Counted from the stretch's first letter, positions 4,445-11,341 are shown. The stretch: 64,000 nt of DNA from GCF_057098645.1 NZ_CM169472.1, one strand, 5' to 3'. The notes: generated from the sequence alone by a model not told the origin. A program made the numbers and translations.

Positions 4445-4616
4445 TCCCTCTCATTTTTATTGTTGAAGGGTGTAAGTATGAAGCAAAAACGGCAGCTCTG
4501 ATACTTGCTTCACAGGTCAACATTTTTTTAACAATCAAGTGCAATTATATCTCTCGCCAGCAGAATGATTTTCACGTTTACTATGAACCACCTTTTTATT
4601 TCCACCGTGAGGGATT

Positions 4617-5537
4617 ATGCGTTTCCGCCAGTTATTACCGCTTTTTGGCGCGCTGTTTGCGTTGTATATCATTTGGGGCTCAACCTATTTTGTCATTCGG
4701 ATTGGCGTGGAAAGCTGGCCTCCATTAATGATGGCGGGCGTTCGATTCCTGGCAGCCGGTATTTTATTGCTGGCATTTTTGCTACTGCGCGGACACAAGC
4801 TCCCCCCGCTACGTCCGCTGCTCAATGCCGCGCTGATTGGCCTGTTATTGCTGGCTGTCGGTAATGGCATGGTGACGGTTGCCGAACATCAAAATGTTCC
4901 TTCCGGCATCGCCGCCGTAGTGGTTGCAACCGTGCCCCTCTTTACCCTGTGCTTCAGCCGCCTGTTTGGCATTAAAACGCGCAAACTGGAATGGGTGGGT
5001 ATCGCCATTGGGCTTGCCGGAATCATCATGCTCAATAGCGGTGGAAATTTAAGCGGCAATCCGTGGGGCGCGATTCTGATTTTAATCGGCTCGATTAGCT
5101 GGGCGTTTGGCTCAGTTTATGGCTCGCGCATTACCTTACCTGTAGGGATGATGGCGGGTGCGATTGAGATGCTGGCGGCAGGCGTGGTGTTAATGATCGC
5201 GTCGATGATTGCGGGTGAAAAACTGACGGCGCTCCCTTCCCTTTCAGGCTTCCTTGCGGTCGGCTATCTGGCGCTGTTTGGTTCGATTATCGCCATCAAC
5301 GCTTATATGTATTTAATCCGCAACGTCAGTCCGGCTCTCGCCACCAGCTACGCTTACGTTAACCCGGTGGTCGCGGTCTTGCTGGGTACGGGACTGGGCG
5401 GAGAGACGTTGTCGAAGATTGAATGGCTGGCGCTCGGCGTAATTGTCTTCGCGGTGGTACTGGTCACGTTGGGAAAATATCTCTTTCCGGCAAAACCCGT
5501 AGTTGCGCCAGTTATTCAGGACGCATCAAGCGAGTAA
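4617..5537 (+). CDS. yedA: EamA/DMT-family transporter
   Basis: 306-aa polytopic membrane protein (about 10 TM segments) in the expected position. Confidence 0.8.
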   Translation: MRFRQLLPLFGALFALYIIWGSTYFVIRIGVESWPPLMMAGVRFLAAGILLLAFLLLRGHKLPPLRPLLNAALIGLLLLAVGNGMVTVAEHQNVPSGIAAVVVATVPLFTLCFSRLFGIKTRKLEWVGIAIGLAGIIMLNSGGNLSGNPWGAILILIGSISWAFGSVYGSRITLPVGMMAGAIEMLAAGVVLMIASMIAGEKLTALPSLSGFLAVGYLALFGSIIAINAYMYLIRNVSPALATSYAYVNPVVAVLLGTGLGGETLSKIEWLALGVIVFAVVLVTLGKYLFPAKPVVAPVIQDASSE

Positions 5538-5996
5538 ATGAATCCCCTGCGTGTCGATCTGCGCGCTGGCACCTTCGCCGCAGATCCACTCTTCCAGACG
5601 CTCGCTAAGCGCTTCATCCGTCAGCTTCTCGCGCCCACGTAACGCGCACTCCCAGACAATCAATACGCGCCAGCCGAGTTCCTGCAAGCGACTGATATCG
5701 CGGCGATCGCGCTCAACATTTTTACCTATCTTCTCCAGCCAGAACTCGGTTCGAGTCGCAGGCACTTTAAACAGATAGCAGTGATGATGATGCCAGAAGC
5801 AGCCATGGGTAAATATCACGCAGCGATATTCATCAACGACAAAATCCGGGCGTCCGGGCAGACTGGCGTCCTGAACGCGAAACGCCAGGCCCTGCCCGGT
5901 TAACAGACTGGCGAGGCGCTTCTCAATCGCCGTATCACGCGTGGCAATCGCGCGCATATTTTTGCTGCGAGTGGCCTTATCGTGAACGTCGGCCAT
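5526..5996 (-). CDS. vsr: Very short patch repair endonuclease
   Basis: 156-aa product [25 protein letters not shown]...; start is internal to the 210-aa track ORF and overlaps the 3' end of dcm, the classic dcm-vsr overlap. Confidence 0.85.
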
Positions 5997-7395
5997 GTTG
6001 TGCCTCTTGCTGACGCAACGCCACCGCCTGTTTGATTTTTGGCTCAAGCAGTTTTGCCACCGCGGCAAAGACCGGCACGACCACCGAGTTACCGAACTGG
6101 CGATAGGCCTGAGTGTCCGAAACCGGAATGCGGAATTTCGCTTCTCCCGGCGCTTCAAAACCCATTAAGCGCGCGCATTCCCGAGGCGTTAACCGACGTG
6201 GACGATGTTGCTGATTCTGCGGATCGTCAAAGTCTTTCTCACCCGTGGCCATATCCCAGCCGCGATCGATTAAAATTTCCGCGCCATCTTTGTAATAACG
6301 CGCAGACAGCGTACGGGTGACGCTTTGCGGATTGTTCGGATAAACCATTCCATAACCGAAGCCGTTACCGCGCGCCTGATGTTTTTTCGCATATCGATAG
6401 AGGTACTTCCACAGCACCGGCGTCAGGATATATTTCGCCTCGACCATCGGGTCCAGCAGCTGCGCTAGCGTCACTCGCTGTCCAGGGAAACATTCGCTGA
6501 TATCACGCAGAGTAAAATCGGCTTTAAGATTCAGATCGCGACGAAAACCCACCAGCACGATGCGTTCACGGTGCTGCGGCAGAAAATGTTTACCATCGAT
6601 GATTTTCGGATCGTCCGGCCCGTTATCTTCTGCATCAGCCACGTCATAGCCCAGTTCGTCCAGCGTCTGCATGATGATGCGGAACGTTTTACCCTGGTCG
6701 TGGCTTTTCAGGTTTTTGACGTTTTCGAGCACAAACATCGCCGGACGACGCGCGTCGATAATGCGCACCACATCAAAGAACAGCGTGCCCTGAGTATCGC
6801 AGGCAAAACCGTGCGCCCGCCCGAGCGAGTTCTTTTTCGATACGCCAGCCAGCGAAAATGGCTGACAAGGGAAACCGGCCAGTAAAACATCGTGTTCAGG
6901 AATGTGTTGACGAATATGTTCCGCCGCCGCCTCATCACTCACGCCTTCTTTATGGCTGAGGGTGATGTCGCGGATATCTTCATTAAAATGATGCGTCGCC
7001 GGATCGCAATAATGGTTGGCTTTATAAGTGCGTACCGCATGTTTGTTCCATTCGCTGGTAAACACGCACTGTCCGCCAATCGATTCAAAACCGCGACGGA
7101 TGCCGCCAATTCCGGCGAATAGATCGATAAAGCGAAACGCATAATGCGGATGATGTGCCGGTGGTTTGGGTAACAACGTTTGCAGATGGGCGAACTCTTT
7201 CTCACTTAAACGGTGCCATGCCGAGTCATTCGCCAGCGCACGTTTTAAAATTGCCGCGCTCCAGTGATTCTCACCTACACCATTAAGCTGAGCCACCAGC
7301 GTTTTAACATCATAAATTTGCAGCAGTTTCTCCAGCATTGCCTGTGCGGCATTCCCGGTGCTGTATGAATCGGTTACTGATATATTTTCCTGCAT
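5977..7395 (-). CDS. dcm: DNA cytosine-5 methyltransferase
   Basis: 472-aa ORF with C5-MTase motifs ([17 protein letters not shown]). Confidence 0.9.
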
Positions 7396-7461
7396 AGATT
7401 TAACCGGCCATCTGAGATGGTCGACAGGTTAACATAATTACTGCCGTTTAGGGCCACGCGC

Positions 7462-8157
7462 TCAGCCCGCAGGTGAAAACGCATCTATCACCTTGTGATC
7501 GACACCTTCATTCTCCCCCGCCAGTTCGGCACTGAGCTTCGCCATAAACTCGACTAAAAATTGCGCGTTGTGCTGCGCCAGCTGCTTGCCTCTTACGGTT
7601 TGCATGGTTTGCGGTAGCTTCAGCAACTTAGTCTGGAAATGATCCAGCGCGTAGCGTTTATCATCAAGCGGGCGATACTGTGCGAACGGATCTTCGCCAT
7701 CAAACAGCGCCACGCCCAATGCCCCTGAAACGGCAAACACGCGCGCCAGGCCAATCGCCCCCAGGGCTTCCAGCCGATCCGCATCCTGGACGATTTTAGC
7801 TTCCGTGGTTAAGGGGGCGATTTGCGCGCTGAAACTGTGAGCGGCAATGGCATGACAAACGGCCTCGATTTTCTCCGCCGGAAATTGCTCGAACTCTTCA
7901 CGGAGCAGGCGACGCGTCTCTTCTGCCGCCAGGATTGAAGAACGCTGCCGTTGCGGATGATTTTTCGCCAAGCTCACAATATCGTGAAAATAACAGGCGG
8001 TTAAAATCACCAGCATATCGACGTCATCATCTGCCGCCAGCTTCTGTGCCGTAGCCCAGACGCGGCGAAAATGACACACGTCATGGGCCGCGTCCTGGTG
8101 CTGATGATGGTTTTTCAACCAGTTTTCGAACTCTGCCTGCCAGTGTTGTAAGTCCAT
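7462..8157 (-). CDS. yedJ: HD-domain phosphohydrolase
   Basis: 231-aa ORF with HD-domain His/Asp residues (CHFRRV... HD); conserved position. Confidence 0.8.
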
Positions 8158-8196
8158 ACGCGCTCCGTTGCCAAAGAGTCGCCACCTTAGCAGTTT

Positions 8197-8499
8197 TTAT
8201 TCATAGCGTCTGCTACGTGCGGGACGAGGTCGGGTGTACCAGGCAATGCTGCCTAACAATGCCCCGACCAGAGCCATAAATAAAAATCCGACCAGTGCCC
8301 CTAACCACTTTCCCGCGGTAGAGCCTAAATCGCTTTCAAATCCCGACACGGGGGCATCGGGGATCCGGCTCATCACCCAGATGTAACGCGCCATTGCCCA
8401 GACGAAATAGCCACACCATGTATAGAAAGCCCACAAAGCCAGTTTGCCACCAGGGCTGCGAGAGAGTCTCTCTTCCATCTTTGTCGAACCGTATTCCAT
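8197..8499 (-). CDS. yedR: Small inner membrane protein YedR
   Basis: About 100-aa product with two hydrophobic helices; start chosen at internal Met (MEYGSTKMEERL...) of the 127-aa track ORF. Confidence 0.65.
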   Translation of the reverse strand: MEYGSTKMEERLSRSPGGKLALWAFYTWCGYFVWAMARYIWVMSRIPDAPVSGFESDLGSTAGKWLGALVGFLFMALVGALLGSIAWYTRPRPARSRRYE

Positions 8500-8729
8500 T
8501 TTGAGATAACCCGGAAAATTCAGACTTAGTACTATTATGTGATAAAAATCACATTTTTCCACATTGAATGAGCCAGTCAAGACTCAATCATTTTTTGAAC
8601 AAATAGATAATTTTTGCGCAACGGCAGTGAATACAAGAAAAATCGTTTTGAGCGATTTTATTTATCTTTGATATCGGCTTTATTAATTCATTCAATCAAT
8701 ATATTAGCACTGATTACAATTATACCTTT

Positions 8730-8822
8730 TTATTATTCTGTGTCATGATGCCTCCGTTATTAGCCTTTTATCGTCTTGTTTATATTTTTTGGGCCGGCAT
8801 GATGCCGGCTTTTTTTTATGCC
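8730..8822 (+). ncRNA. Candidate small RNA with intrinsic terminator (position matches the RseX locus between yedR and yedS)
   Basis: GC hairpin gccggcATGATgccggc followed by T8 at 8793-8822 on the + strand, with no CDS upstream on that strand. 5' end not determinable by eye. Confidence 0.3.
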
Positions 8823-9127
8823 TTCATTAATGTGCGCGTGATCACACCAGCCGTTTAGCGCAACAATCATTGATGCCCCCTATCTTTCCGCTCAACTCAT
8901 AACATATTGATATACATTCATAATTTTCATGAATATTTATATTTAGAATTCATAATTCTGAATTATATTAAATGGATTGGAAACATTTTGAAATCTTTTA
9001 AATATATTTGTTACACGTAATCCTTAAAATAAAATGAACTTCATAGAATAGTATCCAAATGTGCTTTTTTTGGATAACGGCACTTATTGATATATTCATG
9101 AAGATTATAATCACAAGGGAATACATA

Positions 9128-10201
9128 ATGAAAAGAAAAGTTCTAGCAATGCTGGTCCCGGCGTTATTAGTTGCTGGCGCAGCAAATGCGGCTGAAATTT
9201 ATAATAAAGATGGCAATAAAGTTGATTTCTACGGCAAGATGGTTGGCGAACGCATCTGGTCAAATACTGATGATAATAACAGCGAAAACGAAGATACCTC
9301 CTATGCTCGTTTCGGTGTTAAAGGTGAAACCCAAATCACCAGCGAACTGACTGGTTTTGGTCAGTTTGAATACAACCTCGACGCCAGCAAGCCCGAAGGT
9401 GAAAACCAGGAAAAAACCCGTTTAACCTTCGCCGGTTTGAAATATAACGAGTTAGGATCATTTGACTATGGCCGTAACTACGGTGTTGCTTATGATGCCG
9501 CAGCTTATACCGATATGTTAGTTGAATGGGGTGGCGATTCCTGGGCTTCCGCTGACAACTTCATGAATGGTCGTACCAACGGTGTTGCAACCTACCGTAA
9601 CTATGATTTCTTTGGCCTGGTTGATGGTCTTGATTTTGCGATTCAGTACCAAGGCAAAAACAGCAACCGTAGCACTAAGAAACAAAATGGTGACGGCTAT
9701 GCGTTGTCTGTAGACTACAACATCGAAGGTTTTGGTTTTGTAGGTGCATATAGCAAATCTGATCGTACTAATGAACAAGCTAGTGACGGCTACGGTGATA
9801 ACGCTGAAGTGTGGTCATTAGCAGCCAAGTATGATGCAAATAATATCTATGCAGCAATGATGTACGGTGAAACCCGCAACATGACCGTTTTGGCTAATGA
9901 TCATTTTGCAAATAAAACCCAAAACTTTGAAGCTGTTGTACAGTATCAGTTCGACTTCGGTTTACGTCCGTCTTTAGGCTACGTATATTCCAAAGGCAAA
10001 GATCTTTATGCTCGTGATGGACATAAAGGTGTTGATGCTGACCGCGTAAATTATATCGAAGTTGGTACCTGGTACTACTTCAATAAGAACATGAACGTCT
10101 ACACAGCATACAAATTTAACCTGCTGGATAAAGACGATGCAGCGATTACCGATGCCGCAACTGATGACCAGTTTGCAGTTGGTATCGTCTACCAGTTCTA
10201 A
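9128..10201 (+). CDS. yedS: OmpC/OmpF-family general porin (yedS-like), apparently intact
   Basis: Signal peptide [21 protein letters not shown], porin-like beta-strand pattern, C-terminal ...VGIVYQF; an intrinsic terminator follows. Confidence 0.85.
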
Positions 10202-10240
10202 TCAGCCAACGCGCCGCGGCGTGTTACTGTAAAACTGAAC

Positions 10241-10282
10241 ACTAGCCTGAGTTCGTCCCTCATCGAACTCAGGCTTTTTTAT
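10241..10282 (+). terminator. Rho-independent terminator downstream of porin gene
   Basis: Inverted repeat agcctgagttcg...cgaactcaggc followed by TTTTTTATT. Confidence 0.55.
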
Positions 10283-10792
10283 TGGCATTTCATCTCCATC
10301 TGCGGCACACGCAATTGCCAAAGCTTATCGATACACCCCCTTACCCTGCCCCTCCTGGCACAATAACATCAACCAGCTACTCTTCAAGCTAACACCCAAA
10401 TGCATTTCTTTATGAATTAATCCGTAACAAACACGCTTCCCATATAGAAATTTTTGCAAAAATAGTGCATGAAATAAGCTTTTTCTCTACCAATCCGGGA
10501 TATAAATATTCATCAGCACCACAATATTCCACATCACTAAATCTCTCCCCGCCGCCCCGTACCTCTGATAATGGTCTAAAATCATTGAGGCCACTTGCGA
10601 CGACGTTGCTCAATAAGGAAAATTTGGCGTGAATAATATTCAACACCAGTGCAGCATCATCATTACATACTTACACCCGCCGACTACCGCTTTCGATATA
10701 TTGACTCAATTTTCCAGCCTGGTTAAAAATAGCGACCAGCTCAGTCGCAAATATAGTGACTACCCTAACTAAGCAACAATAAGGAATACACT

Positions 10793-11341
10793 ATGACTGT
10801 TCAAACAAGTAAAAATCCGCAGGTCGATATTGCTGAAGATAATGCATTCTTCCCTTCAGAATATTCGCTTAGCCAATATACCAGTCCTGTCTCTGATCTT
10901 GATGGCGTGGACTATCCAAAACCGTATCGCGGTAAACATAAAATTCTGGTGATCGCCGCGGACGAACGTTATTTGCCAACCGATAACGGAAAACTGTTCT
11001 CGACCGGTAACCATCCGATTGAAACGTTGCTGCCGTTGTATCATCTCCATGCTGCAGGTTTCGAATTCGAAGTGGCGACCATTTCCGGTCTGATGACCAA
11101 GTTTGAATACTGGGCTATGCCGCACAAAGATGAAAAAGTAATGCCATTCTTTGAGCAGCATAAATCGTTGTTCCGCAATCCGAAGAAACTCGCGGATGTT
11201 GTCGCCAGCCTCAACGCTGATAGCGAATATGCAGCAATCTTTGTTCCTGGTGGTCATGGCGCACTTATTGGTTTACCTGAAAGCCAGGACGTAGCTGCCG
11301 CTTTACAGTGGGCAATCAAAAATGGGTTTTTTGTTGCCTGA
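10793..11341 (+). pseudogene. hchA: hchA (Hsp31 glyoxalase) 5' fragment, interrupted by prophage integration
   Basis: First ~177 residues match HchA (MTVQTSKNPQVDIAEDNAFFPSEY... AAALQWAIKN), then the frame runs into phage DNA (GFFVA, stop). The missing C-terminus is found at 47701-48018. Confidence 0.85.
11316..11336. other. attL junction (host hchA / phage)
   Basis: hchA reading frame diverges after ...gcaatcaaaaatg; imperfect identity with the right junction (AAATGggTTTTtTGTT versus AAATGaccgTTTTGTT). Confidence 0.5.

Follow-up and report, generated by a model that had tools for sequence, protein, structure and literature searches.

Between drpB and hchA, the chromosome of Escherichia coli carries a porin slot known from K-12 as the pseudogene yedS. 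In a stretch of 64,000 nucleotides from NZ_CM169472.1 (GCF_057098645.1; hereafter the window), the slot is filled by a complete porin reading frame, preceded on the same strand by a terminator-like hairpin. Does the hairpin mark a small RNA gene of its own, and is the porin simply the form of yedS that K-12 has lost? We hold it very likely that the two elements are independent, previously described genes of the E. coli drpB-rseX-yedS-hchA locus, the one encoding the Hfq-dependent, trans-acting sRNA RseX and the other an intact, likely quiescent porin, one of four types swapped at this position by recombination.

Over positions 4500-11324 the window is 99.97% identical to the O145:H28 strain RM12581, where yedA, vsr, dcm, yedJ, drpB (yedR), an unannotated gap, a gene labeled “porin”, and hchA follow one another. 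The gene order of K-12 MG1655 is no different, its matching places being taken by rseX (b4603) and the pseudogene yedS (b4496). The intergenic region starts at 8580, the coordinate from which a preliminary description of the locus had set out, and the drpB-porin interval is 98% identical overall between window and K-12. Both genes lie on the + strand, the porin start codon being located ~310 bases 3′ of the RseX terminator. The following features are referred to below:

8715..8720, + strand: candidate sigma-70 -10 box TACAAT of rseX, read directly and identical in K-12
8727..8817, + strand: rseX gene, 91-nt Hfq-dependent small regulatory RNA, by Rfam RF01401 and identity to K-12 b4603
8740..8764, + strand: RseX 5′ hairpin, from the minimum-free-energy fold, the Rfam consensus structure, and an alignment of six E. 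coli loci and E. fergusonii
8765..8790, + strand: U-rich single-stranded stretch of RseX, from fold and alignment
8791..8818, + strand: intrinsic terminator of RseX (9-bp stem, 3-nt loop, U8 tail), from terminator scan and fold
8819..9127, + strand: AT-rich regulatory region and porin 5′ UTR, from composition, a five-genus alignment, and blastn
9128..10201, + strand: intact gene for a 357-aa porin at the yedS locus, from reading frame, Pfam, alignment, and dN/dS
9200..10210, + strand: divergent allelic block encoding the mature porin, from nucleotide identity profiles
10244..10281, + strand: porin-gene intrinsic terminator with an 8-nt loop on a 12-bp stem and a T-run, from terminator scan

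Downstream of this segment, hchA is interrupted at about codon 177 of 283 by a P2-like prophage of 36.4 kb (window positions 11325-47690), with ogr and gpD at its left end and an 8-bp overlap at each junction. A 20-kb query from this prophage matches the 35.6-kb “Klebsiella phage Kp4849-2” with 96% identity over 95%. The hchA::prophage junction was present in none of the 5426 complete E. coli genomes searched, and hchA is intact in RM12581.

To identify the hairpin, window positions 8100-10700 were scanned with covariance models against all of Rfam (cmscan). A single significant family was returned, RF01401 (rseX), at 8727-8816 of the + strand, spanning model positions 1-94 of 94 with 99 bits at a gathering score of 50 (E 7.8e-14). 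Aligned to K-12 b4603, the element matches in 90 of 91 bases, on the same strand and in the same drpB-rseX-yedS-hchA context. The preliminary description had reported an “orphan” intrinsic terminator at 8793-8822 of the + strand and had considered it consistent with RseX. The terminator is indeed there, being the same element that our scan places at 8791-8818, and the assignment to RseX was well founded; the structure is, however, no orphan, since it belongs to rseX. The alignment to K-12 yedS proposed in the same description likewise recovers a shared locus with near-identical flanks.

The RseX terminator stem (8791-8811) contains six G-C pairs, is followed by eight T, and is identical in sequence to that of K-12; terminator-like sites in the region amount to 4, compared with 1.7 ± 1.3 in shuffled sequences. 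Locus, strand, terminator, and -10 region are thus common to window and K-12 RseX, and the sole difference is a C in the window versus a T in K-12 at 8752 (RNA position 26). This base falls into the 4-nt apical loop of the 5′ hairpin, which reads CCUC in the window and CUUC in K-12, and the C variant is also present in strain CUVET21-147. E. coli and E. fergusonii do not differ in the segment GUUAUUAGCCUUUUAUC, which covers the 3′ arm of the 5′ hairpin and the start of the U-rich stretch. In the E. fergusonii terminator, two stem pairs are altered on both sides from G-C to A-U and are hence compensatory. Given its composition, RseX has an unremarkable fold energy (z -1.13), in line with what short U-rich sRNAs show. 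Upstream, the candidate -10 box TACAAT ends 6 nt before the +1 annotated in K-12, whereas the candidate -35 element (TTCAAT/TCAATC) is weak and stays below threshold, which is why the promoter scan did not call it. On the opposite strand, a near-consensus sigma-70 promoter is located at 8719-8746 (ATGACA-N16-TATAAT, 11/12 matches, identical in K-12), within the first 20 nt of rseX and facing drpB, whose ATG is at 8478. As the -10 element of this promoter overlaps the candidate -10 box of rseX, the divergent promoters could exclude each other.

A single copy of rseX is found in 4877 of 5426 complete E. coli genomes, alongside all four porin types described below, and RefSeq leaves it unannotated in carrier genomes outside K-12. 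The gene also precedes the porin in E. fergusonii (68.8 bits, above the gathering score), and no match to it was obtained in the syntenic loci examined from Citrobacter, Enterobacter hormaechei, and the Klebsiella oxytoca group. Published work on K-12 describes a sigma-70 promoter of rseX backed by 5′ RACE (Douchin 2006, as cited in PMC8313858), an RNA that is undetectable in the wild type but de-repressed in hns as well as hns stpA mutants, and two further targets, fimB and ihfB (PMC8313858). RseX was characterized as a multicopy suppressor that lowers OmpA and OmpC (PMC7648144), and its repression of fepA in K-12 requires the last 40 nt and the terminator loop and relies on Hfq as well as RNase E (PMC11979758). 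Judging from near-identity to the K-12 gene, window rseX would likewise yield a 91-nt trans-acting RNA that ends in its own Rho-independent terminator and binds Hfq at the U-tailed 3′ end. Its expression would be silenced by H-NS/StpA; once made, the RNA would be expected to lower ompA, ompC, fimB, and ihfB mRNA and to repress fepA via its terminator loop, as in the K-12 experiments. Duplex prediction between RseX and ompC, a crude approach, yielded z values of -1.1 to -1.4 (RNAduplex).

The porin frame at 9128-10201 comprises 357 codons with neither internal stops nor frameshifts, in agreement with its earlier description as a full-length member of the OmpC family. With rseX aligning to its K-12 counterpart and the porin translating without interruption, both observations that could have overturned that description are absent. 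A Shine-Dalgarno-like AAGGGA precedes the start codon, and a 21-aa signal peptide, typical of porins, is encoded at 9128-9190. Residues 27-357 match the complete Pfam profile PF00267 (Porin_1, positions 1-337 of 337) with 407.4 bits, far above the cut-off of 23.7. Alignment with OmpF, OmpC, and OmpK35 demonstrates that all constriction residues are kept, namely OmpF K16, R42, R82, R132, D113, and E117 as well as the GGD of loop L3, and the C-terminus (...VYQF) retains its terminal Phe. The cut-offs of the named porin models were not reached: OmpF (NF007446) scored 448.3 versus 583, OmpC (NF007841) 430.9 versus 484, and PhoE (NF007544) 424.3 versus 599. By these scores, the window porin is none of OmpC, OmpF, or PhoE proper. 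RefSeq simply labels the identical RM12581 gene “porin” (WP_001400372.1).

The best match among solved structures is Klebsiella OmpK35 (PDB 9HN1, 5O77), which aligns end-to-end with an E-value of 6.8e-150. Such end-to-end alignment with the OmpK35, OmpF, and OmpC structures presumably makes the window protein a 16-stranded, trimeric beta-barrel of the general-diffusion type. In OmpK35, too, the L3 motif reads VEWGGD and the pore residues are the same, but identity between the two proteins is only 67%. Klebsiella encodes OmpK35 at its OmpF locus; the relative syntenic with the window gene is, in the K. oxytoca group, another protein with 74% identity. Compared with its syntenic orthologues, the window porin gene displays dN/dS values of 0.07-0.17, which on these alignments indicates purifying selection, and its G+C content is only 40-46%. 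The stretch 10220-10319, which includes the porin terminator with its 12-bp stem at 10244-10275, is 100% identical to K-12. We propose that the gene encodes a porin with a Sec signal peptide, a basic ladder and acidic L3 residues in the constriction zone, and its own terminator. Once produced, such a porin would let small hydrophilic solutes through, beta-lactams and carbapenems among them, in keeping with reports on YedS: a functional YedS affects carbapenem susceptibility in a clinical isolate, according to papers citing Warner 2013 (PMC11267920, PMC4048246).

How, then, does this gene relate to K-12 yedS? Both occupy the slot between rseX and hchA, and promoter region, signal peptide, terminator, and protein family are common to them. 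The K-12 gene (b4496) is interrupted by an in-frame TAG (amber) and a frameshift, and the O157:H7 porin at the locus by a single frameshift different from that of K-12. In O157:H7 6535NalR, drpB, on the other side of rseX, is likewise annotated as frameshifted (locus L004, 299-579). Sliding comparison of window and K-12 yields 96-100% identity up to ~9198 and again from ~10220, versus ~40-80% in between. The same holds against all other three E. coli types, with 40-80% nucleotide identity in the block 9200-10210 and 95-100% in its flanks. Amino acid comparison gives the window porin 60.5% identity to reconstructed K-12 YedS, 60.5% to OmpF, 58% to OmpC, and 59% to OmpN, whereas K-12 YedS and OmpN are 71% identical. 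Intact alleles of the K-12 type exist; they are longer (395-404 aa), 84-95% identical to K-12 YedS and ~61% to the window protein, group with OmpN, and are annotated “porin OmpC” or “outer membrane protein yedS/S1/N”. The K-12 and O157:H7 pseudogenes would thereby belong to an OmpN-like type and the window porin to a different lineage. As the mature parts are only 60.5% identical and fall into different clades, the window gene is not simply an undamaged version of the K-12 pseudogene; by sequence, it is the positional counterpart of K-12 yedS and not its orthologue. The preliminary description was right in naming the K-12 gene a pseudogene, but not in calling it the orthologue.

Altogether, four porin types occupy this one slot: the window type (357 aa), a 352-aa type, a 387-aa type, and the K-12/O157 type with intact members of 395-404 aa. 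Counting a genome whenever a type-specific core query covered at least 80% of its own length, the window type occurs in 1527 of 5426 complete E. coli genomes (~28%), the 352-aa type in 1140, the 387-aa type in 366, and the K-12/O157 type in 1662, while the exact window allele (at least 99% identity) is found in 32. Amino acid identity of the window porin amounts to 68% with the 352-aa type and 62% with the 387-aa type. Close homologues occupy the syntenic position following yedA-vsr-dcm-yedJ(-drpB), with 85% identity in E. fergusonii, 80% in Citrobacter, 80% in E. hormaechei, and 74% in the K. oxytoca group; E. fergusonii GCA_002965935.1 lacks dcm between vsr and yedJ. In a tree built by neighbour-joining, the syntenic homologues form one clade with the window and 352-aa types in 100/100 bootstraps, OmpN is joined by the K-12 and 387-aa types in 70/100, and monophyly of the E. 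coli locus porins is recovered in 0/100. Synonymous divergence (dS) between the window type and the E. coli 352-aa type is 1.27, compared with 1.26 between the window type and E. fergusonii. These comparisons suggest that the window type represents a lineage syntenic across Escherichia, Citrobacter, Enterobacter, and Klebsiella, and probably the ancestral one. From flanks of 95-100% identity around a core of 40-80%, the lack of monophyly, and the dS values of 1.27 and 1.26, we infer an exchange of the types at this position through homologous recombination, which would take place in the conserved flanks.

Recombination is also indicated within the gene. UM146, ST131, and EAEC 042 harbor a 371-aa mosaic variant of the window type. 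UM146 is 97-100% identical to the window over 9200-9700 and 51-87% over 9700-10200; the first 200 residues of this B2/EAEC allele are those of the window porin and its C-terminal half is divergent, pointing to an intragenic recombination breakpoint near 9700. The EAEC 042 protein (locus L024, 11344-12459) is 92% identical to the window porin, with identical first 200 residues, but differs from it in its length of 371 aa, in 14 residues inserted into a loop, and in a C-terminal half that diverges. By gene order it would correspond to Ec042-2121; the EAEC 042 genome paper describes an “additional phylogenetically distinct porin” whose presence varies among pathogenic E. coli (PMC2808357). In strain Z503 (locus L007, 2289-3285), a window-type allele carries a frameshift and is directly followed by a transposase fragment and IS30, which adds a third independent inactivation at the locus to those of K-12 and O157:H7. 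E. fergusonii GCA_002965935.1 carries a second porin of 369 aa directly 3′ of the yedS-locus porin, with an NmpC/OmpD-like signal peptide (locus L018, 4663-5772). Differential loss of tandem paralogues was considered as origin of the types and dropped: this NmpC/OmpD-like porin is 54-63% identical to every E. coli type, which excludes it as the origin of the K-12 type. When an intact K-12-type allele served as query for homologues, the best 120 matches all came from E. coli or Shigella. Our literature search, limited in reach, found no paper on the four-type structure of the locus.

The region between RseX terminator and porin start codon contains 31-33% G+C, compared with ~55% in neighboring genes. 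By blastn, the porin upstream region is 88% conserved in E. fergusonii and 82.5% in Citrobacter, and the last ~150 bp before the porin are conserved across genera. Invariant in five genera are the blocks GAAACATTTTGAAAT (8980-8994), TTACA (9011-9015), and TAGTAT (9049-9054), together with the Shine-Dalgarno sequence AAGGGA. The first of these, GAAAYATTTTGNAAT, resembles OmpR sites. A weight matrix constructed from the F1-F3 and C1-C3 sites confirmed in K-12 identified GAAACATTTTGAAATCTTTT at 8980, invariant in five genera, as the best-scoring OmpR-like site; its 8.8 bits are similar to leave-one-out scores of F1, F2, and C1, but were also reached by 76 of 500 AT-rich shuffles. If TAGTAT is a -10 box, GAAACATTTTGAAAT would be positioned at about -80 to -60, as are the OmpR sites of ompF and ompC. 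Duplex predictions (RNAduplex) indicated no pairing, with z ~0 for RseX against the porin translation-initiation region and z +0.4 for MicF against the porin leader, a route suggested for YedS by Warner 2013; the method is weak, as its controls scored -3.9 for MicC-ompC but only -1.7 for MicF-ompF.

An AT-rich region of 310 bp is of the kind bound by H-NS, which makes it most likely that the porin is quiescent and condition-dependent. Salmonella OmpS1 is such a quiescent porin, silenced by H-NS and dependent on OmpR and LeuO. By analogy, an AT-rich, silenced upstream region would be expected at the window porin, which is most likely an alternative porin of this kind, expressed only under particular conditions. 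The name itself has been applied to the locus, with K-12 yedS labeled “yedS (ompS1)” (PMC2731931). OmpS1-type labels, including that of one E. coli homologue termed “outer membrane protein S1”, attach however to the K-12 type and not to the window type.

The features shared with K-12 could also be read as those of an orthologous pair in which the K-12 copy differs by decay alone: the position is the same, identity amounts to 97-100% in the promoter region, the signal peptide, and the terminator that follows, and K-12 yedS carries a stop and a frameshift. Two lesions, however, cannot explain dS above 1, nor a mature region of ~58-80% nucleotide identity whose protein is no closer to K-12 YedS than to OmpF. 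Intact K-12-type alleles are as distant from the window protein, and not one of 100 bootstraps unites the E. coli locus porins. We consider this reading already refuted by the amino acid identities, the intact K-12-type alleles, and the tree, and assign it a negligible probability. A cis-acting role of the hairpin, as an orphan terminator or as leader or attenuator of the porin mRNA, would be in line with its location upstream of the porin on the same strand, with the empty RefSeq annotation, and with the failure to detect RseX in wild-type K-12 (PMC8313858). Yet the covariance model matches along its full length with twice the gathering score, and the near-identical K-12 RNA has a mapped 5′ end, appears as a ~91-nt transcript in hns mutants, and acts on specific targets upon overexpression. 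Moreover, ~310 nt including a separately conserved, promoter-proximal block lie between terminator and start codon, and the element is kept with all four porin types, rendering an orphan terminator or cis-acting leader highly improbable next to an independent sRNA gene.

The third alternative concerns the porin only: intact in sequence, it might be functionally dead, that is, unexpressed and drifting toward the pseudogene state found in K-12 and O157:H7. The independent inactivations in these two strains and in Z503, where the frameshift lies beside IS30, speak for such a course, as do the H-NS-type, AT-rich upstream DNA and the low G+C content of the gene. RseX is undetectable in wild-type K-12, and the porin may be just as silent. 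Conversely, dN/dS remains at 0.07-0.17 across genera with all pore residues kept, the frame is intact in every inspected window-type locus except Z503, and the promoter-proximal footprint is invariant in five genera. Membrane proteomics of an STEC strain furthermore revealed a putative porin, of whatever allele type, that has only 50% homology to K-12 YedS (PMC9731836), and the carbapenem phenotype ascribed to YedS by papers citing Warner 2013 likewise argues for function. We therefore regard a dead porin as unlikely and retain the reading of an intact, most likely quiescent porin.

The yedS slot itself is polymorphic. Whether this reflects selection is a more tentative matter: the slot could be a porin-exchange locus under diversifying or balancing selection by phages, colicins, immunity, or antibiotics, with the tandem, co-silenced RseX as its own switch, a proposal that we consider rather doubtful. 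At least four lineages with dS above 1 within E. coli, and breakpoints where the signal peptide ends and at the stop codon, could be accounted for by such exchange. As for the switch, once H-NS silencing is lifted, OmpC and OmpA could be removed by RseX just as the alternative porin goes in, so that rseX and the porin would form a tandem counterpart to micF-ompC and micC-ompN. In both of these pairs, whose adjacencies were verified in K-12, the sRNA gene adjoins one porin gene while its product represses another major porin, as with rseX; micF and micC are, however, divergent from the neighboring porin, whereas rseX is arranged in tandem on the same strand.

Collectively, rseX and the porin are both ordinary, already known features that tell nothing new on how E. 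coli works; RseX, functional YedS in clinical isolates, and the “distinct” porin of EAEC 042 have all been published. RefSeq naming at the locus is inconsistent, in that alleles of the K-12 and 387-aa types are entered as “ompC: porin OmpC” although the true ompC is located elsewhere, and the window and 352-aa types just as “porin”. In E. coli, “yedS” is the name of a position rather than of one protein, which calls for caution in annotation and in resistance genomics. As the types differ across the whole barrel, they may also be unlike in carbapenem permeability and in what they do as receptors for phages or colicins. Surveys of porin loss that score only ompC and ompF, or that presume yedS to be a pseudogene as in K-12, will miss an intact alternative porin.
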